From: Nitrospirota bacterium
Lineage (GTDB): Bacteria; Nitrospirota; UBA9217
DNA length: 64,000 nucleotides
Reading direction: 5' to 3'
Assembly: GCA_963663225.1 (NCBI GenBank)
Contig: OY760142.1
Span: 800,001-864,000, forward strand
Each line of letters begins with the position of its first letter. Position 1 is the first letter of the stretch. The notes beneath the pieces are model-generated. The model was not told where the DNA came from and ran no database searches. It saw only the letters and a program-made list of their open reading frames with translations. Below, piece after piece: positions 4,853 through 20,258 of this stretch. Made by a program: the position numbers and the translations under genes.

Positions 4853-5866
4853 TCACAGCAGCGGAAAATGACAGGCAACCTGGTGTGCATCAGTTATGTC
4901 GCGGAGTCGCGGTTCGCTTGCGGGATCCGCGCAGATTTCAGGCCTGCCCTTAGACTCATAAACCGGGCACCGGGGCGCGAACCGGCATCCGGTGAGTGGC
5001 CGTTCAAAATCGAACACACCCCAGTTTTTTCCCTGTGCCGGCGGGAAAGCACGGGTAGCTTCTTTGCTCTGTTTTTCAACAAGAGAAGACCACAGCACAC
5101 GCGTATACGGATGGCAGGGTTTGCCTGCGACGCGGCCGGTGAGGCCCATCTCCACGATCTTTCCCAGATACATGACCCCGACTTTGTGGCTGACAAGTTC
5201 GACCACGCGCAGATCGTGCGAAATGAACAGATAGGAAAGATGCAGCTGTTTCTGAAGGTCCCGAAGCAGATTGACAACCTGCGCCTGGATCGACACATCA
5301 AGAGCGCTCGTGGGTTCGTCGGCGACGATCATCCGCGCCCCCACGGACAGGACACGCGCAACTCCTACGCGCCGTTTTTCACCGCCGGAAAGCTCGTGCG
5401 GGAAATTCGAAAGCTTGCTCTTTTTTAGATTCACCTGCTCGAGCAGTTCACTGATGCGCCTGTCCAGTTCAGCACCGCCCGCCTGGTGATGAAGCGTAAT
5501 GGCTTCTTTCAGAATGTCGCGAATGCGCATCTTGGGATTCAGCGCCGCATCCAGGTCCTGAAAGATCATCTGCATTTGTCCCCGCAGTTGACGGACTTCT
5601 TCATGCGGCATCTGGGTGATATCCCTGCCGTCAAAAATGATACGGCCCGCCGTAGCCGGTGTGAGTCTCAGAATGGTCCTGCCGATCGTGGTTTTTCCAC
5701 AGCCGGACTCTCCTACAAGCCCCATTGTTTCATTTTCCTTAAGATAAAAGCTGACCCCGTCCACAGCAGGAATGGACGGCATATTTTCTTTCAGAACAGA
5801 AAAAAAGCCTTTATGATGGGCAAAATGCTTTTTCAGGTCGATGACTTCAAGAATTGTTTTTGTCAT
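4853..5866 (-). CDS. peptide/nickel ABC transporter ATPase (OppF/DppF-like)
   Basis: GESGCGKT, LSGGEKRR, VADEPTSALD, C-terminal GCRFAPRC...VACH. Confidence 0.92.
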   Translation of the reverse strand: MTKTILEVIDLKKHFAHHKGFFSVLKENMPSIPAVDGVSFYLKENETMGLVGESGCGKTTIGRTILRLTPATAGRIIFDGRDITQMPHEEVRQLRGQMQMIFQDLDAALNPKMRIRDILKEAITLHHQAGGAELDRRISELLEQVNLKKSKLSNFPHELSGGEKRRVGVARVLSVGARMIVADEPTSALDVSIQAQVVNLLRDLQKQLHLSYLFISHDLRVVELVSHKVGVMYLGKIVEMGLTGRVAGKPCHPYTRVLWSSLVEKQSKEATRAFPPAQGKNWGVFDFERPLTGCRFAPRCPVYESKGRPEICADPASEPRLRDITDAHQVACHFPLL

Positions 5867-5949
5867 GATATCGTCTTCCCGGATGAACAGCGCAGCATCT
5901 CAAGGAAAGAAATCACCTCTGCCTCTGCCAGCGCACGCCCCGATGTCGC

Positions 5950-7065
5950 TCAGCACGCGACTTCTTGAAAATACAACCAGCACCGTACCCGGTGACCGGG
6001 TGAGATTTCCCGCAGTTCCGGTTCGCTCATCATGCAACGTTCTTTGACCGAAGACGTCATGCGTGCGCACCGTCCATAGAACCGGCAGCCTTGCGGGATA
6101 TTGATGGTATCAAGAACATCGCCTTCAATCGCCTGCAGCCGCCCTTGTTCGCTCATATGCTCTCCGGAGGGAACGGAAGCGAGGAGCGCCTGAGTGTACG
6201 GATGCTTTGACGAAAATGAAGGGGCAAGCACGTCTCCGGCAGGACCGGACTCGACAACCGTCCCTCCATACATGACCGCAACGCTGTCTGAAAGCCGCGC
6301 AATAACGCTGATGTCATGGCTGATGAGCATGGTCGTTATTCCTAATTCCGCTTTGAGTTCCGCCAGCAGATCAACGATCTTGGACTGGATCGTGGCGTCC
6401 AGCCCTGTCGTGGGTTCGTCAGCAATCAATAGCGCCGGTTCGCAGGCAAGCGCCATGGCAATCATGGCACGCTGGCACATGCCTCCCGAAAGGCCAAAGG
6501 GATAGTTGTCAAAGCGGAGGCAGGGAGAGTCTATCTTCACCCGTTCAAGCCAGTACAGCGTCCGTTCCTTCGCTTCTTTTCCGTTTTTCAAGGCCGTGTG
6601 CAAAAGGATAGATTCCGCGATCTGCTTTCCTACCGGTGTGAATGGATTCAGCGAGGACTTGGGGTTCTGAAAAATCATGGCGATTTCCTTGCCGCGTATC
6701 ATGTGCATGGAACGCTCAACGTTCTTGTTCCACCCTCTGTGGTCCTTGCTCACGGTCATGATTTTGTCATTATTTTTCGTGAGCGTAACGTAGCCGGCAA
6801 GGTCCTGAAGCAGGTTCTTCCGGATGTCGCGAGCTTTGAAGCCGATCTTGCCGCTGATTACCCCCGGCCCCGCGCTGATCAAGCCCATGACGGACAGCGC
6901 TGTTATGCTCTTGCCGCTGCCGCTCTCTCCCACCACGCCGAGCGTTTCACCCGGGGCAATTTCCAAACTCACACCGTCTACGGACCTGACAAATGCCCTT
7001 TTGCTGCGCGAGTAAAAATAGGTGCGCAGGTCTTCTATTTTGAGAAGCGGAGAGGCGCTCGTCAT
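5950..7065 (-). CDS. peptide/nickel ABC transporter ATPase (OppD/DppD-like)
   Basis: GESGSGKS, LSGGMCQR, IADEPTTGLD, GCRFYGRC; ATG 7065 overlaps the permease stop (ATGA). Confidence 0.92.
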   Translation of the reverse strand: MTSASPLLKIEDLRTYFYSRSKRAFVRSVDGVSLEIAPGETLGVVGESGSGKSITALSVMGLISAGPGVISGKIGFKARDIRKNLLQDLAGYVTLTKNNDKIMTVSKDHRGWNKNVERSMHMIRGKEIAMIFQNPKSSLNPFTPVGKQIAESILLHTALKNGKEAKERTLYWLERVKIDSPCLRFDNYPFGLSGGMCQRAMIAMALACEPALLIADEPTTGLDATIQSKIVDLLAELKAELGITTMLISHDISVIARLSDSVAVMYGGTVVESGPAGDVLAPSFSSKHPYTQALLASVPSGEHMSEQGRLQAIEGDVLDTINIPQGCRFYGRCARMTSSVKERCMMSEPELREISPGHRVRCWLYFQEVAC

Positions 7066-7958
7066 GTTCCCCTCTTTTTGCCCTCGAGCATGTTGTTCAA
7101 ACCGTCGCCGAGCAGATGAAATCCGAGAATGGTGAATAAAATCGCGAGCGCGGGGGCCGTGGAGGGCCAGAACTTCCCCTGCATAAAATAATTTGCTCCG
7201 GCCTGCACCATGTTCCCCCATGACGGTGCAGGCTCCTGCACGCCGAATCCGAGATAGCTGAGGGAGGTCTCCATTAAAATCGCCTCGCCCATGCCCAGGG
7301 TCGCCTGGATAATCAAAATCGTCCGGCAGTTATGCCATAGAATGTGTTTCAGAATAATTGTCCTAAGCGGCAGCCCCAGCGCGGTGTCGGCTTCGATAAA
7401 GTTTTTTTGTTTCAGAAAAAGGATTTTGCCTTTGACAAGCGATGCAACAACCGGCACGTTCGTAAGTCCTACCACGATCATGATGTAGTAAATGTTCGGT
7501 TTGAACGCCGCAATTACCAGCAGAATCAACACGAGACGGGGAAAAGAATCCACCAGATTGATGAAGTAGGTTATGATGGTGTCGACAGCTCCACGGCGAT
7601 ATCCTGCAAGCACGCCAAACACGGTACCGAGCAGCAGCGCGATAAAAACCGCAAGCAGGCCCGGCAGAAAATACGCCTGAATGCCCACGATCATGCGCGA
7701 AAGAATGTCGCGTCCCAAAAAATCCGTGCCCAGCACATGCCCCCCGACGCCCGGCGGCGCCATCATAAGGGCAAGATCAATGTCATTCGGATCATACGGC
7801 AGAAGATGAAGAGATCCCAGAACATAAGAACCCAGGACAACGATGATGATGAACAGGCCGTACGCTACGTATGCGAGGTCAACGGGCTCCGCTCTTTTCC
7901 AGAACGGCAGGTCCGAAAATTCGCTGATTTCGCCGGATATTTGGGAATATGTTTTCAT
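7062..7958 (-). CDS. peptide ABC transporter permease (OppC-like)
   Basis: HVLGTDFLGRD, ETSLSYLGFG, PSWG, LLGDGL. Confidence 0.92.
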   Translation of the reverse strand: MKTYSQISGEISEFSDLPFWKRAEPVDLAYVAYGLFIIIVVLGSYVLGSLHLLPYDPNDIDLALMMAPPGVGGHVLGTDFLGRDILSRMIVGIQAYFLPGLLAVFIALLLGTVFGVLAGYRRGAVDTIITYFINLVDSFPRLVLILLVIAAFKPNIYYIMIVVGLTNVPVVASLVKGKILFLKQKNFIEADTALGLPLRTIILKHILWHNCRTILIIQATLGMGEAILMETSLSYLGFGVQEPAPSWGNMVQAGANYFMQGKFWPSTAPALAILFTILGFHLLGDGLNNMLEGKKRGT

Positions 7959-8035
7959 ACGAGTCAATTCTAGCTATTCAAAAAAAGTGTGCACTTTTTT
8001 TTACAGCCAGGTCATTTTTACAGGTATCCGGGTCG

Positions 8036-9001
8036 TCATTCTTTCGATGCCCGCGGATTTACCGCCACATAAACCAGCCGCTGAAACAAGCCTCCCAGAC
8101 GCACGAAAATGGCTGCCAGAATCGCAATGCCCATGATGACAGGATAGTCGCGGTCCTGTGCGGCCTGCCACGCCATTCTCCCCATGCCCGGCCAGTTAAA
8201 CACCTGTTCGACGATAACGGCACCGCCGAGAATAAAAGGAATTTTGGAAGCAATGATCTCGGTGACCGGAATAAGCAGGCCTTCCTTGAAAAAATGCTTC
8301 CATACCGCCGCGCCTTTTGCCTTGGCCGTGCGGAGGTAGTCTTCTGCCAGAACCCGTTCCATCTCAGCACGTAAAAAACGGATTACTTCGCTTATCGTGC
8401 CGTTGCCGACGCCGAGAACAAAAATCGGCAGCAGCAGATAAAGCCATTTGAAATGCTGCGGCGTACTCGAAAATCCGAAGGCAAGCGGAAACAGCCCCAG
8501 TTTGTGCATGAAAAAATAGATGACGATATACCCAAGCCAGAATACCGGAATTGCGGAAACAATATAGGCAGCCATCGTGAGGGGCCAGGAAATTTTTGTT
8601 GTTCCGCGCATGGCAGAGTAAACCGCAATGGGCGCTGCGATCAAGAGCGTAACGAGCAGGGAGCCGAGAGTAAGAACAAGCGTGTTCCATCCGACGCGCA
8701 GCACCTCGGAAAGCACCGGCAGGCCTGTCCGGATGGATGTTCCGAAATTGCCGTGCAGCATTTCCATGAACCAGGAAAAATACTGCGCATACCACGATTT
8801 CGGAACTCCTAACGCTTCACGCACACCCGCGCGCGCCTCCGCTGAGTAAAGCTGTCCTTCGAGGAGAAGACTAAACGGGTCTCCCGGAGAAAGATACAGA
8901 ATGATAAAAACCACAAAACTCACCCCAAGGAGCAGGACCGCTGTAATCGCCAGCTCTTTTGACAGCACAAGGGCTATAGGCCGGACCGCTGATAGCTTCA
9001 T
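8036..9001 (-). CDS. peptide ABC transporter permease (OppB-like)
   Basis: PGDP, GNFGTS, DYLRTAKAKG, EQVFNWPGMG, RDYP. Confidence 0.92.
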   Translation of the reverse strand: MKLSAVRPIALVLSKELAITAVLLLGVSFVVFIILYLSPGDPFSLLLEGQLYSAEARAGVREALGVPKSWYAQYFSWFMEMLHGNFGTSIRTGLPVLSEVLRVGWNTLVLTLGSLLVTLLIAAPIAVYSAMRGTTKISWPLTMAAYIVSAIPVFWLGYIVIYFFMHKLGLFPLAFGFSSTPQHFKWLYLLLPIFVLGVGNGTISEVIRFLRAEMERVLAEDYLRTAKAKGAAVWKHFFKEGLLIPVTEIIASKIPFILGGAVIVEQVFNWPGMGRMAWQAAQDRDYPVIMGIAILAAIFVRLGGLFQRLVYVAVNPRASKE

Positions 9002-9081
9002 GCTTTTCTATGCTCCTTACGCCTCCACTAAATCAGATCATGGTTCTTTCTCTCAAACCTGCCGAGACGGCACCGGCTAAT

Positions 9082-9180
9082 CAGTACTGATCATCCTCCT
9101 TTGTATATGCCGGGAAAGGGTTGTGCCCTCTCTTCAGTGCGAAGAGAGGGCACAGGGGGAGGGAGGATGAAGCCGTACTG
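9082..9180. repeat. nested inverted repeat (long stem-loop) between the SBP and permease genes
   Basis: Perfect 14-bp stem 9122-9135/9141-9154, flanked by tcatcctcc/ggaggatga (9091-9099/9162-9170) and cagtac/gtactg (9082-9087/9175-9180). Confidence 0.8.
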
Positions 9181-9199
9181 CAAGTTCTCTGTATAAAAT

Positions 9200-10816
9200 C
9201 TACTTCTGGTCCTTTTCCGCAATAAACCATTCATCCGCAAAGGAGAAAAACTTGTACGGGTGTATGGCAACATGCCGCACCTTATTGTGGTACGCCGCAT
9301 AATTCGTAAGCGTCCAGAGGAAGGTATAGGTGTTTTCGTCGGCAAGAATGGAATGAAGCCGCCGGTTGATCGTCCTCCGCTTCTCATGATCGAGGGTAAG
9401 TTTGCTCTCGTTGATCAGGCCGTCAACCTCCGGATTGGAGTACCCGATGAAATTGTTTTTCCACGGGCCAATTTCTCCGGAATGGAACAGCGACGAGATG
9501 TCCGCGGAATCATCAAAAACCCAGGAAGCAAAAACAATGTCGAAGTCATGCTCCAGGAACACGTCCTCCTTCCATGCCTGCCATTCCTTGAATCCCACCT
9601 GGACATCAACGCCGATGTTTTTAAGGTAATTTCTGAAGGCAAGCACTACCCGTTTCACTGCTTCGCTCTCTTTCTCAATCGGGACTTTCAGCGTCAAGAC
9701 AAGTTTTTTCCCGTCTTTCTGCATGATCCCGTCCGGACCGGGAGCAAACCCTGCTTCCCGGAGAAGCGATTTCGCCTTTTCAGGATTGAAGGGAAACGGC
9801 TGTACTTCAAGGTTGTATGCCCAGCTGCCGGGCGCAAAGGGACCGGAAATGATTGTCCCCTGGCCGTTGAAAAATGAATCGAGCATTTCCTGCCTGTTCA
9901 CTGCATACGTAAAGGCCTGCCGGACGCGTTTGTCCGCGAGCAGTTGGTTCCGGACATTGTAGCCGAAAAACGAATACGAAAGCGCATTGTACGGTTGCAG
10001 AACAAAACGCTTATCGCCCTGTACCTCGGGAATATCGCGGGGATTCACCAGTACGATCATGTCGATGGCATTGAACATGAGGGCCTGGGTCATGATATTC
10101 TGGTCCGCAAACGGCTTTGCAATAAACTTGTCGAGGTGCGGCCGTCCCTTGAAATAATTGTCGTTCGCCACAAGTATGATTTCCCGGTCCGGCGTAATGT
10201 TCTTGAGAATATACGGCCCGGTGCCGATAGGGTGCTGGACAAAGGGGTCTTCCCTCGTGAGGAAAACAGGGTTGGCCGGTCCATGCCGGGGTATTATTTT
10301 GAAGCTGAATTTGGCAAGCGCATTCAGGATCGGCCGCTTCAGAGTAAAACGGACCGTGTAATCATCCAGCTTTTCGACGGTATCGATGAACTCATACCGG
10401 ACCTTGAGCGGCGTGATGGTCCTCGGATGCATCATGATTTTATAGGTAAAAATCACGTCGTCCGCGCTGAACGCTCTTGGCTCTTCTCCATCGCGTGCAT
10501 GCCAGGTCACTCCTTTCCGGAGAGCAAAAGTATAGGTGCGTCCGTCTTTTGACTGTTCCCACCGTTCGGCAAGCTCCGGGACAATTTCCTGTTTTTCATT
10601 GATGCCGACCAGACCGTTGAAAACCAGCTCGGTGATGCGCAAGGAAATCATTTCATTGCTCGTGACGGGATCAAGTGTGGCAGGCCGCCCGTATTCACCG
10701 TAGCTCAGCATGCCGCCATCAGGCCTGTTGTCTTTTTTACGAGCTGCGTCTGCAAATGGCGCAGCCACAAGAGACACCACAACCAGCAAAAGCACAACAA
10801 TAGGAATTCTTTTCAT
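9200..10816 (-). CDS. periplasmic substrate-binding protein, family 5 (OppA/DppA/AppA-like)
   Basis: Signal peptide MKRIPIVV...ADA; TLDP, PELAERWE, PIGTGPY, NYFKG, YSNPEVD motifs; AGGAGG RBS. Confidence 0.93.
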   Translation of the reverse strand: MKRIPIVVLLLVVVSLVAAPFADAARKKDNRPDGGMLSYGEYGRPATLDPVTSNEMISLRITELVFNGLVGINEKQEIVPELAERWEQSKDGRTYTFALRKGVTWHARDGEEPRAFSADDVIFTYKIMMHPRTITPLKVRYEFIDTVEKLDDYTVRFTLKRPILNALAKFSFKIIPRHGPANPVFLTREDPFVQHPIGTGPYILKNITPDREIILVANDNYFKGRPHLDKFIAKPFADQNIMTQALMFNAIDMIVLVNPRDIPEVQGDKRFVLQPYNALSYSFFGYNVRNQLLADKRVRQAFTYAVNRQEMLDSFFNGQGTIISGPFAPGSWAYNLEVQPFPFNPEKAKSLLREAGFAPGPDGIMQKDGKKLVLTLKVPIEKESEAVKRVVLAFRNYLKNIGVDVQVGFKEWQAWKEDVFLEHDFDIVFASWVFDDSADISSLFHSGEIGPWKNNFIGYSNPEVDGLINESKLTLDHEKRRTINRRLHSILADENTYTFLWTLTNYAAYHNKVRHVAIHPYKFFSFADEWFIAEKDQK

Positions 10817-10888
10817 AGGTCCTCCTTGCCATATCCGGGTTTGCAACGCATGTGATGTGTGCGGCCGCAAACCAAAATCCGTTCTGCG

Positions 10889-12376
10889 TTAAAAAATTTT
10901 TACATCTCCTGCGCTCTGCTGTTCTATTGCATATACACCCTGCATTGCTTCCTGTATCTGCCGGACGGCGGGAAACTGTTTGCTCATCTCGAAATAAATC
11001 TCGATTGCCTCTGAAAATTTTTTGCTCCGGTAATACAGTCCGGCCAGATCCGCAAGCATCAGCGGGTCGTTCGACTCAATCTTGTTCTTGTTGCTTTTAT
11101 CCCTGCCCATTTCCATGGAGAACAAAGCCTTTCCCCGGTTTTTCTTCGCAAGAGCGTATCTGCCGAGCCCGAAGTGCAGGATGGAAAACTTTTTGCCCTG
11201 ACCGGCCGCGGCGATGGATTCCGCGCGCTTCGAAACTGCACCGCATTCTGCTTTTGCCCGCGCACAGGCAAACAGTATCTCTCCCAGAAGGTCCGGGTCT
11301 GCCGGCTGCTTCTGCGAAAGACCGGTCCATACCTTCAATGCTCCGGCCTGATTGCCTTGCAGATATTCATGCGCCGCCTGCTGTGCCCGTATCCGGTCCT
11401 TATAATGCTGCGACATGCGCGAGGTAGCGATAAAAGATGCTGCAACCTCAGCCGACTGTTCTTCGCTCCCTGCAAAAGAATACGCGGCGGCAAGATAGTA
11501 TTCAGCCGCGTCTTTTACCGCTCCGTTGGCGGCGGCTTTTTCGAGCGAAGCTATGCTTGCCTGGCCATAGAGAACCGACATGGCATCGAGAAGTCCGGGA
11601 TCGTAAAAAAAGAGGACTTTCAATTTTCCGAGCACCTCTTTGTGAGAAGGCTCCTTTCCATCAACGCGTCTGAGCAGTGCAAGCCCCTTGTCGATCAGTC
11701 CTGCTTCGTTGTAAACAGACAGACAGTTCTTCACCATCCGGACCAGCGCCGGTTTCCCGGTTTTCTTTACGTCTGCAAGGCTGCCGTCGCACAAGGCAAC
11801 GGGGTCTTTCTCTGCAAAGTTAATTCTGCTGTACGCTGCGGCAAGCTCGGACCGTACTTCCGGGGAGGCGGAATCTATGCCGTTCCAGATGCGCTCCGCT
11901 TCCTGCCCGTTGTCGTTCAGGTAATGGCAGAGGCCCAGATTCACTTCAGCGATCGAACGATGCAACTGACTGATTTTTTTGTCGGCAATGAATCGTTCCA
12001 GAAAGGACACAGCATCAGCAGGTTTTTCCGACTCGATAAGCAGCTGCCCTCTATACAGGTCCGCGAAGCGGCTTCTGGCCGACCCTTTTGACGCGGACAG
12101 TTTTTTGAGATAATCCTGCGTCGCGGCAAGCGATTCTTCGTAGAACGCCCGGTACAGTTCGGCGTTTTTCAGGTAGATCATGCCGAGGGTCAGGTTCGCC
12201 GCCCCCTGCCGGGACGGATCAAGTGAAGTAATCTCTGTTCGAAGATTCAAAGCTGCGTCTTCATAATGCCGCTGTTCATAAAGCTTCATCGCACGCGCAA
12301 CTGCGTCGTCGGCGGCGGCAGGTACGGCTGACGGAATGCTCAGAAAGAGTATGATGGAAAAAAGAATTCGCTTCAT
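10889..12376 (-). CDS. exported TPR-repeat protein
   Basis: Sec signal peptide; helical A/L/Y/G-patterned repeats (ANLTLGMIYLK, AEVNLGLCHYL, AEYYLAAAY, LADLAGLYY). Confidence 0.75.
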   Translation of the reverse strand: MKRILFSIILFLSIPSAVPAAADDAVARAMKLYEQRHYEDAALNLRTEITSLDPSRQGAANLTLGMIYLKNAELYRAFYEESLAATQDYLKKLSASKGSARSRFADLYRGQLLIESEKPADAVSFLERFIADKKISQLHRSIAEVNLGLCHYLNDNGQEAERIWNGIDSASPEVRSELAAAYSRINFAEKDPVALCDGSLADVKKTGKPALVRMVKNCLSVYNEAGLIDKGLALLRRVDGKEPSHKEVLGKLKVLFFYDPGLLDAMSVLYGQASIASLEKAAANGAVKDAAEYYLAAAYSFAGSEEQSAEVAASFIATSRMSQHYKDRIRAQQAAHEYLQGNQAGALKVWTGLSQKQPADPDLLGEILFACARAKAECGAVSKRAESIAAAGQGKKFSILHFGLGRYALAKKNRGKALFSMEMGRDKSNKNKIESNDPLMLADLAGLYYRSKKFSEAIEIYFEMSKQFPAVRQIQEAMQGVYAIEQQSAGDVKIF

Positions 12377-12412: not shown

Positions 12413-13729
12413 TTATTGCTTCAGTTTCATGAGAAAAATCTGGTCCCATTGATTGACCTGGGCGCGATATGCTATCACGCCGTCTGAAGAGCAGGTGATA
12501 TCATGGTTCATTTTGGTGCCCGTTTTTACCAGACGGCTCGTCTTCTCTTTGATGTTCACGATATAGATGGGATTGAATCCGACCCGGTCGTTTTTTACGT
12601 ATACAATTTGCGCGCTGTCAGGCATCCACGCGGGCCCGCGTTCCACGTCAGGAATAATGTCCTGGGCGACCACTTTTGCGGCAAGCCCGTCTCCTGCAGG
12701 AGAATCTGACCCGTCGGCAGCAATAACCATCAGGGACCATATCTTGGGGTCTCCGGCAGGATTGACATTTGAGTAAAACGCTATCTTCTTCCCGTCAGGC
12801 GACCACATCGGCCGCAAGTCGTCGTAGGTCCACGTGGTGAGCGCTTTCAGCGTCTCAACAGGTTTGGTCACGTCGCCGATCAGATAGATGTCATGGTTTT
12901 CATTGCTGCCGTGCATCACAGCGATTCTTTTTCCGTCCGGGGACCATTGCGGGTAGAGATACGGTTTTCCTCCCCTGGTCAGCCGTGTCAGCCCGCGGGT
13001 TGCGGTATCCAGAAGATACACATCGCCCTTGCCGGTTCTGCCTGATACGAAAACGATTGAATCAGCAACCGGCGACCAGTGCGCATGGCCGTTTTTCTCC
13101 TTGTGATTGGTAAGCCGGGTTGTTGTCGCCGTCGGCATGCTGCTGATGTCCTTCAAATAAAGATCGTAATTCCCCTCGCCGCCGTTGCTCATAAAAACAA
13201 CACGGTTTCCCTGCGGAGACCACGAAAGACCTGCGTTATAACTCACTTCCTCATAGACACCTGGGAAAAAGAACTTTTCTTCCCTGCGGTTTTCGGATAG
13301 CTGGAAATAAAGGGTCTGAACTATTGATCCGTCGGGACGGGCGATAATAATCTCTTTTTTATCGCCGCTGCTCCGTTCAAACGCAATCAGGGTTCCCTGC
13401 CGGGACCATACCGGATTTGAATCATTTCTCCCTGTTTCAATCTGAACAAGCGGTTTCACAAAAAGCGGTTCAATAATTGCGTTCGTGCGTTCTTCCGTGT
13501 TATCCCCTGTCGCTGTAGGGCGGGACTCAACAGCAGAATCCGGGCCCAACCGCGCCGCATCTTCGACGTCCTGGTCTTCCGCCTCCTGCTCAGTGAATTC
13601 GGTTTCCGATGGAGCTGCCGGCAGGTCTCCGCCGGCGACCGCCCGTAAGCCTCCCAGAAGAAACATCACCGCAAACAAAAGACAATGGTATCGGGTTGCT
13701 GTTTTCACCAAAGCGTCTCCCGCAATCAA
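12413..13729 (-). CDS. TolB-like beta-propeller (PD40 repeats), exported
   Basis: Repeated PxWSPDGxxIAF motifs (PVWSRQG, SWSPQG, HWSPVAD, PQWSPDG, PMWSPDG, PAWMPDS); hydrophobic signal segment then acidic linker; start uncertain. Confidence 0.85.
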   Translation of the reverse strand: MIAGDALVKTATRYHCLLFAVMFLLGGLRAVAGGDLPAAPSETEFTEQEAEDQDVEDAARLGPDSAVESRPTATGDNTEERTNAIIEPLFVKPLVQIETGRNDSNPVWSRQGTLIAFERSSGDKKEIIIARPDGSIVQTLYFQLSENRREEKFFFPGVYEEVSYNAGLSWSPQGNRVVFMSNGGEGNYDLYLKDISSMPTATTTRLTNHKEKNGHAHWSPVADSIVFVSGRTGKGDVYLLDTATRGLTRLTRGGKPYLYPQWSPDGKRIAVMHGSNENHDIYLIGDVTKPVETLKALTTWTYDDLRPMWSPDGKKIAFYSNVNPAGDPKIWSLMVIAADGSDSPAGDGLAAKVVAQDIIPDVERGPAWMPDSAQIVYVKNDRVGFNPIYIVNIKEKTSRLVKTGTKMNHDITCSSDGVIAYRAQVNQWDQIFLMKLKQ

Positions 13730-16296
13730 AGATTTTTAATCTGCTCCCAATATTTCTGCGCCGTATCCCGGCTTTGCTCGAACGTACTGTTTCCCTCCAG
13801 CTTTTTCGGGAAAAAGTCAAAGTACTCCCGCCAGGCAAGGTTAGCACTGTTCAGCAACGCCGGTTTCCGGGTCATCAGATAGAGTTTGTGGTATGACAGC
13901 GCAAGATAGTAATAGGTATCATGCACGGCCTCGTCATACTGGATATTCGGAAAAAATCTTGTGTTCTGTTTTGCCGTCTGAAGATGCTGGATCGCTTTTC
14001 CGAAGGCCTGTGCCGCTGCATCCCTATTGGTTTGAACGAGCCCGCTTCCCTTTTCATAGTACGCGTGTCCCAGGTTCGTGTAAGTCACCGCATACTGTTT
14101 ATACAGAAGTTCCCGGTTCTCGGGCAGTGAAAGCACATTTTCAAATTCACGGATCGCGCCATCGTAATCACCTTTCTGATCGAGGTAAATCTGTGCCAGG
14201 CGGCTGTGGGCCTGGGAATAATCCGGATGCCCTTTTTCCGTGCTCTGGTAAGCACGGACCGCCCCCTCCACATCACCCTTTTGTTCCGCCCGCTCGCCGA
14301 TCTTCAGGTAATCTTTTTGCAAAACAATCCGCCGGTCACCTGTCCTGTTTTCTTCTTTTTGGGCAAACTCGATGATCTCTTCCCAATCACGGTAATCACC
14401 ACCGGCAGAAATTCTGACCGTATGGAATCCGAGTCCCACAAGTTTTCCTGCGCTGAGAGGCGTGGTACCGATTTTTTCTCCGTCAATGTATACGTCCGCG
14501 GAAGACGGCTGGGACTCTACTTTGAACAGCGAATTGTTCACCTGTAGAACATATTCTTTCAAATCCTTGTTCTTTTCTATTTTGACCTGGCCCTTGATCT
14601 GCTGATAACCATGCCGGTACAGAATAATATCGTATTTTTTCCCCACGCGGATCGGGATCTCTGCTCTGCCGTCAGCACCCGTGGAGCCAACCCATTCCTC
14701 ATTCAGGTAAACGTTCACACCACCCAGAGGGGCCACATCCGGAGAAACACCGCCTTTGGCAGACAGAACAAAGTAATTCTGCGCCGCTTCCTGCTCTTCC
14801 CGGTAAATGCGCCTGACCACCCGGTCTCCAATGGCAATTTTTTCATCTTTTCTCAGGTCCTCAACTTCAACCCAGGCCCCCGAGTCTTCCGCCTTCTTTA
14901 CTCTGATCTTTCCGATATCACGATAGCTCGATATCTTGCCGCTTTCATCAAACCGGGGGGTCATGAGCGAAAATTCCATCCCCCTGCTGATCCGGTAGCC
15001 CTGTTTTCCAAGATTGATGCGATAGCGGTCTTCTTCCTTCGACAGCACAGTCCCTTCAAAGGGAAACCGCTCCATGATATTCGTTGCGATCTCTTTCGCC
15101 GCGCCATTGATATCACCGGCACCTGATGCCCTGTTCAGCTGACTCAGAATCAATTTTCCCCCGGATGTATAAAACTTCGTTTCTATGAGAAACCCTTTGT
15201 CATCCTTTGCCACACTGCCCATGATAATCATGTCAACGGTTCTGCGAAGCGGAGTGTCGCGCCATCCCTTTGTAGTCGCTTTTTCGATCCCAAGTTTTGC
15301 CTGTTTCATTTCAGTCTGCAGTGTTTTCGTCGGCACTTCTCTAAAACAGGCGTTTTTGAATATCTGATTTGCCACGGAATGCTCCGTCTGCACAAGAATA
15401 TCTTTCATATCCGCTCCGGGAGTATTGCCTACAAAGCGGTAGATCCCGGCCCTGATCGGCTTGGGCTTCGTCGGGTAGAAATAGCGCGGGAGAGCCACCT
15501 CGCCTTCGAGCGTAATGCTCCCCTTCCAAGTGGCGGGAATATATCCGGGCGCGGACATCTGAATCTGGGCTTTCTTGCCGGGTTCTCCATTATATGTATA
15601 TACAAGGACTCCCTTGGAATCCGTACTGCCTGCGGACTTGTTGTCAATGCTGACGGCAACGCCGGGGATGCCGCTCGACAGCCCATACTCCTCCATCAGC
15701 GCGCTGATGGTAACCTGAACGCGCCTGGCAAGTGCCACTTCAAGCCTCTGGCCCGGCTCTGTTCTGCTTGTTTTGCGCCAGGTGGAATATCCCGACTTCG
15801 AAACCGTGATGTCCAATCCTGCTTTCGGCATTTCCTTATACTCGTAGATGAACTCACCTTTTGCGTCCGTTTTTCCCTGTTCCTTTCCTGATGCCGCAAC
15901 GGCTGCATCCTTCACGGGCGCGCCTTTTTCCGTAACAACGATCGTAATGTATCGCGTGGCTTCGAGATCTGCGTCAAAGGAATATTTGTCTACGGTCCCT
16001 TCTTTGGGCAGTTTCATAAGAAACGTGGTTTTCCAGGGCTTGACCCGGTATCCGGGCATTTCCTTGACCACGGCTACTTCTACTTCGGCCCCCGGTTTCT
16101 TTTTTATTATTTTGGAAAAATTACCGTTCGAATCGGCAAGACCTTCTTCCTTGCCGTCGACAGTTATTCTTGCTTGCGCCGCAGGCTGGCCGTCCAGACG
16201 GGCCTTTACCTGCAGATCGAGCTTTTCCCCGGCGCAGCCGAACAGCAGAACTGACGCCATAATAATTAGGCTTGAGCAAATAATGCGTTTTGCCAT
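13726..16296 (-). CDS. large multidomain lipoprotein (Ig/prealbumin-like repeats, CsgG/FlgT-like module, PEGA, TPR)
   Basis: Lipobox LLFG|C; repeated GxTDxxGxF beta modules; PEGA motif VESQPSSADVYIDGEKIGTTP; C-terminal TPRs. Confidence 0.8.
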   Translation of the reverse strand: MAKRIICSSLIIMASVLLFGCAGEKLDLQVKARLDGQPAAQARITVDGKEEGLADSNGNFSKIIKKKPGAEVEVAVVKEMPGYRVKPWKTTFLMKLPKEGTVDKYSFDADLEATRYITIVVTEKGAPVKDAAVAASGKEQGKTDAKGEFIYEYKEMPKAGLDITVSKSGYSTWRKTSRTEPGQRLEVALARRVQVTISALMEEYGLSSGIPGVAVSIDNKSAGSTDSKGVLVYTYNGEPGKKAQIQMSAPGYIPATWKGSITLEGEVALPRYFYPTKPKPIRAGIYRFVGNTPGADMKDILVQTEHSVANQIFKNACFREVPTKTLQTEMKQAKLGIEKATTKGWRDTPLRRTVDMIIMGSVAKDDKGFLIETKFYTSGGKLILSQLNRASGAGDINGAAKEIATNIMERFPFEGTVLSKEEDRYRINLGKQGYRISRGMEFSLMTPRFDESGKISSYRDIGKIRVKKAEDSGAWVEVEDLRKDEKIAIGDRVVRRIYREEQEAAQNYFVLSAKGGVSPDVAPLGGVNVYLNEEWVGSTGADGRAEIPIRVGKKYDIILYRHGYQQIKGQVKIEKNKDLKEYVLQVNNSLFKVESQPSSADVYIDGEKIGTTPLSAGKLVGLGFHTVRISAGGDYRDWEEIIEFAQKEENRTGDRRIVLQKDYLKIGERAEQKGDVEGAVRAYQSTEKGHPDYSQAHSRLAQIYLDQKGDYDGAIREFENVLSLPENRELLYKQYAVTYTNLGHAYYEKGSGLVQTNRDAAAQAFGKAIQHLQTAKQNTRFFPNIQYDEAVHDTYYYLALSYHKLYLMTRKPALLNSANLAWREYFDFFPKKLEGNSTFEQSRDTAQKYWEQIKNL

Positions 16297-16409: not shown

Positions 16410-16859
16410 TTACATCGTTGGGGGCTGGATGTTTACCTCGCCGGGATTTACAATTTTGTCTTCATCGGATTTTGAACCTTCTATGCTTTTCCGTTTCCCT
16501 TCAGCGATTTTCTTTATTTTAAATTCCACCTTCTTGCCGCCGAATCTTCCTACTTCCACGGACCGTGTTTCAGTCATATAGCCGATCCTGCTCGCTTCCA
16601 CCTTGTATACTCCCGGAATAATAAAGTCCTTCAGAGACTCAAACTTGCCTTCTGCGTCCACGACAACGGCCTGCGATGCCTTTTCGAGCGTGGTCGTGGT
16701 GTTGATCATGTTCACAACAGATCCCTGCGGACTTTCCTTGGCAGGAGGAATAGGTTGCAGGTTTGCGTCCACAAGCTCGACCGTTCCATATATTTTCGGT
16801 GCACAGGCACCCAGCGTGATCCCCAGAACCGCCAGTAAAATATACTTTGTGCATTTCAT
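16410..16859 (-). CDS. small lipoprotein with carboxypeptidase-regulatory-like (prealbumin) domain
   Basis: Lipobox TLGA|C; VDAEGKF...PGVYKVEASRIGY motif; AGGAGG RBS. Confidence 0.8.
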   Translation of the reverse strand: MKCTKYILLAVLGITLGACAPKIYGTVELVDANLQPIPPAKESPQGSVVNMINTTTTLEKASQAVVVDAEGKFESLKDFIIPGVYKVEASRIGYMTETRSVEVGRFGGKKVEFKIKKIAEGKRKSIEGSKSDEDKIVNPGEVNIQPPTM

Positions 16860-16936: not shown

Positions 16937-16979
16937 AAAAAAAAAACCGCCAAAGAGAACAGATTATGTTCTTTGGCGG
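16937..16979 (-). terminator. intrinsic terminator forming the riboswitch expression platform
   Basis: Minus strand CCGCCAAAG-AACAUAAUCUGUUCU-CUUUGGCGG followed by U10; its 5' arm overlaps the aptamer P1 3' strand. Confidence 0.9.
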
Positions 16980-17107
16980 CTCGACTAGCATATAAAACAA
17001 TTACTGCGACTCTGCTGATGCTTTTGGTGTACGACAAGTCGCCGGTGTTTTAGTTAGCTTCGTGGCTCTGCGCCCTCCGGTTTCCCGGGGTTTGCTCTGA
17101 GCAAAGA
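16970..17107 (-). ncRNA. GEMM-I (c-di-GMP-I class) riboswitch, A20 variant, predicted 3',3'-cGAMP sensor
   Basis: Minus strand UCUUUG-CUCAG-A-GCAAACC-CCGG-GAAA-CCGG-AGGGCGC-AGAGCCACGAAGCUAA...AUGCUAGUCGAGCCGC-CAAAGA. Shows P1, P2 with GAAA tetraloop, CUAA/AUG receptor in P3, A47, C92 and A at position 20 (nt 17096). Confidence 0.88.
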
Positions 17108-17177: not shown

Positions 17178-17361
17178 GAAAATGGATAAACATTATTTTT
17201 GTTAGCCAGCCCGGTGATGCACTTTTAATTCCAAAACGTTTTCAACTGTGTGACCGGGCTCACAAAACAGACATTTTTTCTCCTCCGAAAGCAATAATTT
17301 TTTATGAGGAACCTTTTTCACCTTTGTTCCGCATCAGGCAGCTGGACCATAATAAATGTTT

Positions 17362-17389
17362 TTGACACAAATACAGAATCTGATAGAAT
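17362..17389 (+). promoter_or_regulatory. sigma70 promoter of the K+ channel gene
   Basis: TTGACA-16 bp-TAGAAT with TG extension. Confidence 0.65.
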
Positions 17390-17444
17390 AAAGCACTTTT
17401 GTTTTCCGGTGCCGCAAGGAAACAAAACACGCCACAAAAAACTT

Positions 17445-18512
17445 ATGAACCCTGTAAATCAGCTGAAAATTTCACTGGTCGTTCTCCTCGCTCTCGTCTC
17501 TCTCGGCACAGCAGGATATATGTTTATTGAGTCGTGGTATTTCCTTGACGCCCTTTACATGACGGTCATCACGCTCGCCACCGTAGGGTTTAAAGAAGTC
17601 CATGATCTGAGTGATGCGGGAAAAATCTTCACCATATTGCTGATCGTTTTCGGAGTGTCCGTCATCGGCTTCGCCTTAAGCAAGCTCGCCCAGATCATGT
17701 TTGAAGGACAGCTCCAGCGTTTTATCGGGAGGAAAAAATTGGAAAAATCCATAGACAGTCTGACCGGTCATTACATCGTTTGCGGCTACGGAAGAATCGG
17801 ATCCCTTATTTGTAAAGAGTTCGCCGCCAAACCTATTCCTTTCGTCGTTGTGGAAAACGATCCTATCGTCCTTGATAAGCTTGAAACGGACTCCCATCTT
17901 TTTCTCCGCGGCGATGCTACGGAAGATGAAGTCCTTCTCCAGGCTGGAATTAAACGTGCAAAAGGCCTGGTATCGGTGGTCAACTCAGATACGGAAAACG
18001 TTTACATTACCCTTACCGCACGCGGGCTCAATCCGGATCTTTATATTCTTGCGCGTTCCAGTGAAACAGGCTCGGACATAAAACTCAAGCGGGCGGGAGC
18101 GAGCAAAGTCATTTCACCGTATCACATCGGCGGCAACCGCATGGCCCAGGCCATTCTGAGACCAAACGTAGTTGACTTCATCGAGATAGCCACCGGCCGG
18201 GACCATATTGATCTGCAGATGGAGGAAATACTGATACCACAGCAGTCCCCGTTCGCGGGCCAAAACCTGCTGCAGGCCGGTCTCCGCAAAGAAACCGGCG
18301 TTATCATCGTCGGCATAAAAAAAGCAACCGGGAAAATGGTTTTTAATCCCGACTCAACTACCCTCCTTGAACCCGGTGATACGCTCATCGTTCTCGGTCC
18401 GCCGGCATCAATAGCAAAGCTCGAAAACCTTTTTTCCAGCAATGCTTCAAAAGAAAAGGTCCCGGCGATCAAGAAACAGCGTCAAAAAATTGAGAAACGA
18501 AAGCCCGTGTAA
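17445..18512 (+). CDS. 2-TM potassium channel with RCK (TrkA-N/TrkA-C) domains
   Basis: DALYMTVITLATVGFKE pore region; IVCGYGRIG Rossmann motif; GDAT; VFNPD TrkA-C. Confidence 0.9.
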   Translation: MNPVNQLKISLVVLLALVSLGTAGYMFIESWYFLDALYMTVITLATVGFKEVHDLSDAGKIFTILLIVFGVSVIGFALSKLAQIMFEGQLQRFIGRKKLEKSIDSLTGHYIVCGYGRIGSLICKEFAAKPIPFVVVENDPIVLDKLETDSHLFLRGDATEDEVLLQAGIKRAKGLVSVVNSDTENVYITLTARGLNPDLYILARSSETGSDIKLKRAGASKVISPYHIGGNRMAQAILRPNVVDFIEIATGRDHIDLQMEEILIPQQSPFAGQNLLQAGLRKETGVIIVGIKKATGKMVFNPDSTTLLEPGDTLIVLGPPASIAKLENLFSSNASKEKVPAIKKQRQKIEKRKPV

Positions 18513-19328: not shown

Positions 19329-20258
19329 ATGAAAAAAATAGACCCTTCCAAAGTAAAAACCTATTCGCTGAAAGGCCGTGCCAGCAAAGTAACGATTGAT
19401 GATTTTTCCAAGCCCTATCAGAAGGGCGGCACCTTCCGCGATTTTCTCTCTTCTCTGCCGGACATCCTGGCTTCCAAACATTTCAAAGACGTTGCTGCGG
19501 CAATCGTTCAAGCCCGGAAGAACAACCGTCCGGTCATGCTCGGGATGGGCGCACATTCGATTAAAGTAGGATTGAGCCCGGTGATCATCAACCTTATGGA
19601 GCGCAATATCATTACCAGCCTCTCGCTGAACGGCGCCGGAATCATCCATGATTTCGAACTTGCGTTCATCGGCCAAACGTCCGAGGACGTTGACAAGGAA
19701 ATTCTCTCAGGCGCGTTCGGCATGGCGGAGGAAACCGGCAGCCTTCTGAACCGGGCAATCCGCTCGGCAGGCGCCGGCGAAGGAATCGGCGCGGCCATCG
19801 GCAAAATGATTCACCAGAGTGATTTCCCGCATAAGGACAAAAGCCTCCTGGCCACCGGACATCGTCTGGGCGTTCCGGTGACCGTGCATGTCGCCATCGG
19901 CACCGACATCATCCATATGCATCCGTCTTTTGACGGGAAGGCGACAGGCGAAGCGTCCCACAGGGATTTCCTCACCTTTTGTTCCCTCGTTGCGGATCTG
20001 GACGGTGGAGTTTATATCAATCTCGGGTCTGCCGTGCTTCTCCCTGAAGTTTTTCTGAAAGCGGTGACCCTTGCCAGAAATCTCGGCCATTCCCTCAGCC
20101 GTTTCACAACGGTAAACATGGATTTTATGCAGCACTACCGTCCGAACACCAATGTCGTTCGGCGCCCCACACAGGGAGGCGGCAAAGGCTATTCGCTCAC
20201 CGGTCATCACGAAATCATGCTTCCCCTGCTTGCAGCCGCAATCATCGAACAGCTGTAG
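19329..20258 (+). CDS. uncharacterised deoxyhypusine-synthase-like fold protein
   Basis: LGMGAHSIKVG, NGAGIIHDFE, GTDIIHMHP, GSAVLLPEVFLK, GHHEIM; 6 bp after gmhA. Confidence 0.6.
   Translation: MKKIDPSKVKTYSLKGRASKVTIDDFSKPYQKGGTFRDFLSSLPDILASKHFKDVAAAIVQARKNNRPVMLGMGAHSIKVGLSPVIINLMERNIITSLSLNGAGIIHDFELAFIGQTSEDVDKEILSGAFGMAEETGSLLNRAIRSAGAGEGIGAAIGKMIHQSDFPHKDKSLLATGHRLGVPVTVHVAIGTDIIHMHPSFDGKATGEASHRDFLTFCSLVADLDGGVYINLGSAVLLPEVFLKAVTLARNLGHSLSRFTTVNMDFMQHYRPNTNVVRRPTQGGGKGYSLTGHHEIMLPLLAAAIIEQL

Follow-up and report, generated by a model that had tools for sequence, protein, structure and literature searches.

We examined a 64-kb stretch of bacterial DNA (the window), which corresponds to C1:800001-864000 in a genome made up of a single contig of 3,255,001 bases, and in which an earlier reading made from the letters alone (the sequence-only reading) had placed a GEMM-I riboswitch at 16937..17107. 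The element is a genuine GEMM-I class cyclic-dinucleotide riboswitch, an assignment made solid by covariance model (CM) and comparative results, and it is predicted, with good support, to act as a transcriptional ON switch through competition between its P1 helix and an intrinsic terminator. The explanation of the whole system that we prefer, and that we consider somewhat probable, is that of a GEMM-I ON switch with adenine at position 20 (A20) whose ligand would be cGAMP (3',3'-cyclic GMP-AMP), alone or with cyclic di-GMP (c-di-GMP), made by one or both GGDEF proteins with serine at the specificity position (Ser-type).

The riboswitch class is already known, and what is new is the undescribed host lineage and the unusual regulon. 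To our knowledge, work on cGAMP riboswitches has been confined almost entirely to Geobacter, in which their targets are cytochromes, pili and related genes. A Geobacter-like host, implied by the sequence-only reading and also prompted by a GSU2086-family gene at 19329-20258, was rejected, as the relatives of both the 856-aa protein encoded downstream of the riboswitch and the first GGDEF candidate described below carry Nitrospirota or Nitrospiraceae labels. In the search listings, the literature linked neither Hypr GGDEF enzymes nor cGAMP riboswitches to Nitrospirota beyond incidental co-mention. If cGAMP is indeed sensed, Hypr-cGAMP signaling would reach another phylum-level label and a different regulon.

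A GEMM-I aptamer with adenine at position 20

The entire window was scanned on both strands with cmscan against all 4227 Rfam families, and the sole match was RF01051 (c-di-GMP-I) at 17106..16972 (-), with a score of 48.5 bits (gathering score 35; E 2e-06) over model positions 1-87 of 87. The match is beyond chance, because a search of the own genome recovered the same site at E 2.4e-8 and the orthologous copies covary around the P1/P2/P3 junction. Position 20, as numbered for Vc2 in PMC6140456, is model position 11, where the consensus is G and the window has A at nucleotide (nt) 17096. In the same CM alignment, the equivalent of the intercalating adenine A47 (model position 38) is A at nt 17069, and the equivalent of C92 is nt 16976, the first C past the last paired position. 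The sequence-only reading had named these three residues, with the same coordinates for position 20 and C92, and both the A47 and C92 equivalents are invariant in a 35-sequence alignment (A2) described below.

The anatomy of the aptamer is given in Table 1. A feature absent from the sequence-only reading is the insertion in the P3 hairpin, of 51 nt versus 3 in the RF01051 model, and the distal part of P3 varies in sequence and length among orthologs. All 35 sequences have the same P2 GAAA loop, the same CTA within CTAA and the same A and G within TATG, the CTAA/TATG letters of P3 being what we take to be a tetraloop receptor motif. An energy fold of the aptamer without the terminator pairs the P1 5' strand with the conserved GCAAA instead (TTTGCT/AGCAAA with a 3-nt loop, 17092-17106 on the minus strand). 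Copies with the CTCTG variant of P1 lose this pairing, so that it probably arises incidentally from two constraints and represents no third state.

Two RF01051 matches were found in the own genome, with 150 of 279 first-look candidates scored: the window site and one further A20 aptamer at C1:190726-190814 (plus), which provides the additional copy that the sequence-only reading had suggested looking for. The second site scored 62.4 bits, has a CTCTG/CAGAG P1 and its own terminator, and stands before a gene for a small lipoprotein and one for a secreted protein (>337 aa). The profile of RF03167 (c-di-GMP-I-GGC) matched the own genome only at this second site (C1:190727-190815), with 53.6 bits against a cut-off of 59, and no c-di-GMP-II riboswitch was found in the genome. 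A loose GEMM-I core pattern run on the whole genome gave 128 matches, amongst which a GNRA hairpin and the junction letters were seen by eye only at the two known sites; this is weak evidence that the covariance search of the genome missed nothing.

Comparison with 40 relatives extended these observations, with an RF01051 match in 35 of the 41 genomes (own included). From the relatives, 11 unusually long matches (123-138 nt) were taken, and these copies and that of the window, all located by CM, share the same core and all carry A20 (12/12). A homologue of the 149-aa gene 1 lies 3' of the riboswitch in nine relatives' genomes. It is not found there in G002, whose contig ends, or in G031, a genome from another family. 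For the 856-aa protein, relatives were located at 78 loci, mostly in metagenome-assembled genomes (MAGs) labelled Nitrospirota or Nitrospiraceae. The same leader was found upstream in 21 of these loci with a pattern that left position 20 free, and A20 was present in 21/21. No Rfam match at gathering was obtained in 18 other operon loci, including loci with Thermodesulfobacteriota, Rokubacteria, Burkholderiales and Desulfobacterales labels. By sequence comparison, the 856-aa gene family is widespread and its control by this riboswitch is lineage-specific. Relatives of the 856-aa PEGA/TPR lipoprotein (47-64% identity) were also seen in MAGs labelled Rokubacteria, Burkholderiales, Acidiferrobacterales, Sulfurifustaceae and Desulfobacterales, and 12 of the 18 riboswitch-free loci scanned belong to this Rokubacteria-to-Desulfobacterales label range.

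Predicted competition between P1 and an intrinsic terminator

The leader runs from 17177 to 16859 on the minus strand. Its terminator hairpin (16979-16947), folded alone, has an energy of -18.0 kcal/mol (z -6.0) with 0/200 shuffles equally stable, and it is also present in the minimum-free-energy fold of the whole leader. A simple terminator scan missed this minus-strand terminator because its stem has a 2-nt bulge, and folding recovered the hairpin. As the sequence-only reading had described, the P1 3' strand CAAAGA lies within the 5' arm of a terminator ending in ten U; folding agreed, as did covariation with both partners. The C92 equivalent also falls within this arm, as terminator pair 145-189 of the alignment. 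P1 consists of 5-6 A/U-rich pairs, versus 13 pairs, five of them G-C, in the terminator; therefore, termination should be the default and readthrough should occur on ligand binding.

The two structures were evaluated in alignment A2, for which the 35 sequences were picked by a pattern for the J1/2 motif and not by their helices. This pattern included A20, so that the 35/35 occurrence of A20 in A2 is circular and the unbiased counts are only the 12/12 and 21/21 given above. The aptamer helices are paired in 88.1% of cells versus 30-44% with slid partners, and 19 of 32 pairs vary on both sides, values that 0/500 shuffles reached. For the terminator, 95.4% of cells are paired, versus 38-51% with slid partners. 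Variation on both sides affects 5/6 pairs of the P2 helix (helix 3), the closing GC and CG being invariant in 35/35, and 8/8 pairs of the basal P3 extension (helix 5). P1 pairs 5-150 to 9-146 form in all 35 sequences, and the sixth pair, 4-151, in 18 only. P1 pair 7-148 changes from UA to CG in three sequences and to UG in two. In these five, the shared strand has G in column 148, the terminator partner (column 186) is C in 5/5, and the P1 partner (column 7) is C in three and U, as a wobble, in two. This pattern is what would be expected if one strand has to be capable of pairing with both partners.

In the proposed mechanism, without ligand, the strand at 16979-16970, which contains the last nucleotides of P3 together with the C92 equivalent and the 3' strand of P1, would pair with 16956-16947, and the resulting hairpin with its ten U would stop transcription about 76 nt upstream of gene 1. 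Ligand bound at the three-way junction would keep C92 and the weak P1 in the aptamer, the terminator would be unable to form, and RNA polymerase would enter the nine-gene array. The ON-switch wiring of the sequence-only reading is thus retained as a well-supported prediction, in silico and comparatively, and the structure and its conservation suggest that readthrough at the terminator would depend on the ligand.

A comparable arrangement is described for the pilM riboswitch of Geobacter metallireducens, a GEMM-Ib ON switch for cGAMP, in which either the aptamer or the terminator can form and the ligand-pairing cytosine is sequestered in the latter (PMC9262584). By description, the two share a three-helix aptamer and a terminator that overlaps the aptamer 3' side. 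They differ in the pair nearest the pocket (U15/G38 in pilM, G-C here) and in their setting, which is pilus assembly genes in a Geobacter host there and an envelope/ABC array in a Nitrospirota-labelled lineage here.

The modest score of 48.5 bits, the large P3 insertion and the observation that the aptamer alone folds no better than shuffles in the energy model (z -0.58) could be taken to mean that the element is a decayed, non-regulatory relic, with a leader that ends in a constitutive terminator or attenuator. This is very improbable, given that the core letters are invariant and the helices covary across genera, and that the same leader and operon occur in nine relatives' genomes and 21 MAG loci. 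Additionally, with a constitutive terminator the conserved nine-gene array would remain unexpressed.

Candidate cGAMP synthases and the ligand

The case for cGAMP begins with position 20. The structurally solved GEMM-Ib aptamer Gs1761 (pgcA, G. sulfurreducens) binds cGAMP with a dissociation constant (Kd) of 0.53 nM and c-di-GMP with a Kd of 660 nM (PMC6140456), and a single A20G change in Gmet_0970 swaps its selectivity from cGAMP to c-di-GMP (PMC6456294). The window element is like Gs1761 in having A at the G20 equivalent (A14 in Gs1761), the intercalating adenine (A41 in Gs1761) and a 6-nt J1/2 (PMC6274999, PMC6140456), and its J3/1 G-C corresponds to the ligand-pairing C75 preceded by G74. 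It differs in that P2 starts with G-C instead of C15-G40, P3 starts with G (17068)/C (16978) instead of A42-U73, and a long P3 insertion is present that Gs1761 does not have.

The letter at position 20 was also tallied among 87 CM-located matches, which are not a random sample, as long matches, same-genus matches and two hit-rich genomes were chosen. Position 20 is A in 35 of them and G in 52. Together with the next two letters, the A types are A+GC (27), A+GT (6) and A+CC (2), and the G types G+CC (36), G+GC (12), G+GT (2) and G+CT (2). The presence of A in all unbiased copies, in a family that also has G20 aptamers, argues that A20 is maintained and does not reflect drift. Two of the genomes, G015 and G007, have mostly G20 with a flipped closing pair (CC...GG versus the consensus GC...GC; 18/25 and 11/18), and 2/18 copies in G007 have the flipped pair together with A20, as Gs1761 does. 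In the same-genus relative G005, all three GEMM-I matches scored best as RF03167 (66-72 bits, cut-off 59). The idea that the flipped-pair G+CC copies make up the RF03167 family was rejected, as the three G005 matches are two G+GC and one G+CC.

The genome contains 17 GGDEF matches, and of the 13 that are full-length, 12 carry Asp at the specificity position and the remaining one carries Ser. This Ser-type protein (candidate 1, C1:1947302-1948504) is a GAF-GGDEF protein encoded by a 401-aa open reading frame (ORF), about 380 aa by its database relatives. Its best PDB match is 6d9m_A (115 bits, the next best 101), a T4-lysozyme fusion of the Geobacter GacA Hypr domain, and in the alignment Tyr304 and Ser348 of GacA are matched by Tyr and Ser of candidate 1. 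It shares these residues with GacA (GSU1658/Gmet_1914) and its GAF-GGDEF architecture with the Hypr enzyme MxGacB (10.1101/600031). Compared from its sequence, it is unlike GacA in having GGEEF for GGDEF and no Rec domain, and in two extra residues that turn the RxxD I-site (REVD in 6d9m) into RTGSTD. Orthologues (61-99% identity) are present in 23 of 24 family genomes, the one without being 63% complete, and the signature of Tyr, Ser, GGEEF and spacing is found in 23/24 family loci. Amongst the 120 best database clusters (>=69% identity), GGEEF is present in 120/120, with Ser in 119 and Thr in one, and Tyr in 119 and Leu in one. This conservation argues for some function.

Candidate 2, in the C1:2398430-2398774 region (minus), is a 466-aa membrane-HAMP-GGDDF protein with Ser; two further GGDDF-type proteins of the genome have Asp or Asn at this position. 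By description, candidate 2 resembles GSU1937, a HAMP-GGDDF protein with Ser that is the second enzyme with a part in making cGAMP in G. sulfurreducens (PMC8835794). In the explanation that we prefer, cGAMP would come from one or both of these Ser-type proteins. The sequence-only reading had proposed a search for Hypr-type GGDEF proteins, which thus returned two Ser-type candidates, neither with the canonical motif. Its broader claim that the organism uses cGAMP signaling is plausible on account of these two proteins, even though one of them carries a GGEEF motif that has been called inactive in combination with Ser.

GGDEF proteins outside the family were surveyed in the best 30 loci per search, a search covering five genomes in the set where this riboswitch type was not seen, and loci without a motif match were dropped (4/30 in the set carrying this riboswitch type, 7/60 in the other). 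Canonical Ser/GGDEF proteins were found in 4/4 out-of-family genomes that carry the type. More widely, they were found in 10/14 out-of-family genomes (G026-G039 range), so that Ser types are seemingly common in the phylum-level group, and in four of those ten (G026, G027, G030 and G035) the families' best match to candidate 1 is below orthologue level.

Several points weigh against cGAMP as the ligand. The Vc2 G20A mutant binds cGAMP with a Kd of 120 nM and c-di-GMP with 53 nM, and Cbe 1-2, which has A20 naturally, gives 463 nM and 30 nM, respectively (PMC6140456). The GEMM-Ib subclass is defined by a measured preference for cGAMP, and natural A20 aptamers range from about 1200-fold cGAMP-selective to c-di-GMP-preferring (PMC6456294, PMC6140456); on this literature A20 would be necessary but not sufficient for cGAMP selectivity, so that it does not decide the ligand. 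The P2 pair beside the ligand is G-C in 35/35 copies, as in the Rfam consensus, compared to C15-G40 in Gs1761 (PMC6274999) and U15/G38 in pilM (PMC9262584), and point mutations in lower P2 alter cGAMP/c-di-GMP selectivity (PMC9262584). A pyrimidine-G pair at the base of P2, which we read from these two aptamers as a mark of GEMM-Ib and which has no published definition, is not found here. On the synthase side, Ser combined with GGEEF is inactive in GacA (D374E) and WspR mutants, in line with a "Goldilocks" model, and the same source reports natural Ser/Thr GGDEFs with GGDE[F/Y] only (PMC6456294), a motif that candidate 1 does not have. The genome also encodes at least 12 Asp-type GGDEF domains and, as searched, no SMODS/CD-NTase. 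Finally, Ser-type GGDEFs occur, within the survey described above, in 6/10 same-phylum genomes in which no A20 copy of this type was seen. Co-occurrence of A20 with Ser-type GGDEFs was dropped as a discriminating test, being found in 4/4 genomes with the type but Ser types also in 6/10 without.

Many of these points are what would be expected if the same riboswitch, with the same ON mechanism, responds to c-di-GMP, with A20 tuning its affinity down to cellular c-di-GMP and cGAMP irrelevant or absent. Apart from A20, the pocket is that of the Rfam consensus (G-C closing pair, A47, C92), and the nanomolar c-di-GMP affinities of Vc2 G20A (53 nM) and Cbe 1-2 (30 nM) indicate that such pockets can bind it (PMC6140456). 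c-di-GMP is surely present, because of the Asp-type GGDEF domains, and the two A20 elements would be the only c-di-GMP riboswitches of the genome, because no G20 GEMM-I or c-di-GMP-II was found in it. Additionally, the pairing of Ser with GGEEF in the main Hypr candidate is one reported as inactive (PMC6456294). We nevertheless consider this alternative possible rather than probable, as A20 is kept in all unbiased copies (12/12, 21/21) while the family has G20 aptamers, and Ser-type GGDEF genes are present and strongly conserved. The swap to c-di-GMP by A20G alone in Gmet_0970 (PMC6456294) also implies that A is costly for a c-di-GMP sensor.

The window pocket resembles that of the bispecific Vc2 G20A, because A20 sits with the consensus G-C pair. 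This Vibrio cholerae mutant is the closest description among the compared features, with A47, C92 and the G-C closing pair kept and position 20 alone altered, although it was engineered from a c-di-GMP OFF switch and the window element is a natural, A-conserved ON switch. Cbe 1-2 of Clostridium beijerinckii is, by description, likewise a natural A20 aptamer outside Geobacter, and differs in having been measured as c-di-GMP-preferring (PMC6140456). By analogy, the G-C pair would lower the odds of strict cGAMP selectivity and not those of cGAMP responsiveness. From the sequences compared, 3',3'-cGAMP is the most likely physiological ligand, either by itself or in combination with c-di-GMP, and the assignment to cGAMP, with bispecific sensing included, is our best single guess and a rather probable one. 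The A20 residue of the sequence-only reading therefore stands, and its step to a cGAMP sensor does not follow from that residue alone, given Vc2 G20A, Cbe 1-2 and the G-C pair.

Another signal, such as c-di-AMP, a linear dinucleotide or a further cyclic dinucleotide, possibly from the Ser/GGEEF enzyme, might be suspected from the invariant features of the type beyond A20 (J1/2 CTCAGA, and GCAGAG versus the consensus GCAAAG) and from a conserved synthase candidate that departs from both canonical and Hypr GGDEFs. This is improbable: the two residues that recognize the G-beta half of the ligand, C92 and A47, are both kept, a simulation paper citing Ren 2015 states that Gs1761 is not bound by c-di-AMP (PMC6274999), and no positive evidence pointed to a different ligand.

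A more far-reaching proposal, which we regard as tentative and rather doubtful, is that a Nitrospirota-labelled family runs a cGAMP pathway of its own, with an active Ser/GGEEF enzyme lacking the RxxD I-site, an A20 sensor with a G-C pair, and an envelope/uptake array as its target. Within such a pathway, loss of RxxD might represent escape from c-di-GMP cross-inhibition, and the output might be peptide or metal uptake and not extracellular electron transfer; jointly, these two additions are no less speculative. The conserved Ser/GGEEF clade is in any case the most interesting by-product of this work. As judged from its sequences, it is a natural exception to the statement that only GGDE[F/Y] occurs, and it tests the Goldilocks model, which would not be a general rule if the enzyme is active. 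If it is inactive, the A20 riboswitches would need another source of cGAMP, such as the HAMP-GGDDF protein, or would sense c-di-GMP. Similarly, A20 on a consensus-type pocket tests whether position 20 suffices for a physiological response to cGAMP or needs the lower-P2 pair as well.

The downstream gene array

The nine genes downstream of the riboswitch are listed with the other features in Table 1. Domain matches identified genes 5-9 (4853..10870, minus) as an ATP-binding cassette (ABC) importer of the Opp/Dpp/Nik type. No specific substrate is named, because all NCBIfam matches of these genes are below equivalog cut-offs, and the product of gene 3 is not TolB itself, because it scored 133 bits against a TolB equivalog cut-off of 343. 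A signal peptide or lipobox is present at the start of all first five proteins. The importer operon named as the target by the sequence-only reading was thus found, in genes 5-9, and the immediate targets are four exported proteins that are not transporters.

Table 1. Features of the riboswitch leader and of the array downstream of it, in window coordinates.
Feature	Position	Strand	Basis or remark
Promoter-like TTGACA-17-TAGATT, TG before -10	-35 17177-17172, -10 17154-17149	-	consensus match only, 10/12
P1 5' strand TCTTTG	17102..17107	-	sequence
J1/2 CTCAGA, last letter A20 (nt 17096)	17096..17101	-	CM alignment
P2: G-C and C-G pocket-closing pairs, AAA bulge, 6-bp stem, GAAA tetraloop (17084-17081)	17070..17095	-	CM alignment
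A47 equivalent	17069	-	CM model position 38
P3 with tetraloop-receptor-like CTAA/TATG and 51-nt distal insertion	16978..17068	-	CM alignment
J3/1 G-C; nt 16976 is the C92 equivalent	16976..16977	-	CM alignment
P1 3' strand CAAAGA, also in terminator 5' arm	16970..16975	-	sequence, pair counts
Intrinsic terminator: 5' arm 16979-16970, 3' arm 16956-16947, ten T 16946-16937	16937..16979	-	folding
Gene 1: 149-aa lipoprotein, lipobox LGAC	16410..16859	-	weak CarboxypepD_reg-like match
Gene 2: 856-aa lipoprotein, CarboxypepD_reg, PEGA and TPR domains	13726..16296	-	
Gene 3: 438-aa exported TolB-like PD40 beta-propeller	12413..13729	-	
Gene 4: 495-aa exported TPR protein	10889..12376	-	
Gene 5: SBP_bac_5 binding protein	10870-9200	-	likely start near residue 19
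Genes 6, 7: permeases	9001-8036, 7967-7062	-	
Genes 8, 9: ATPases	7221-5950, 5866-4853	-	

The order of genes 1-8 is kept in 5/6 relatives tested, which represent six genera, and gene 9 is kept in the four of those five whose sequence reaches it; in the sixth relative the sequence stops at a contig end within gene 7. Gene 2 is syntenic in 6/6. The gaps between the array genes range from -4 to about 200 nt, and all nine genes may be cotranscribed. The longest gap, after the binding-protein gene, contains a hairpin without a U-run. This is a perfect 13-bp inverted repeat, GTGCCCTCTCTTC ... GAAGAGAGGGCAC, at 9125-9160 (minus), between the binding-protein gene and the first permease gene, and it may serve as an intercistronic stabilizer or attenuator that raises binding-protein mRNA relative to that of the membrane components.

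On the other side of the leader, the divergent neighbor at 17304-18512 (plus) encodes a potassium channel with two transmembrane segments and TrkA-N and TrkA-C domains. A promoter-like TTGACA-16-TAGAAT (11/12) lies at 17362-17389, within the channel ORF as listed, so that the true start of this ORF may be further downstream.

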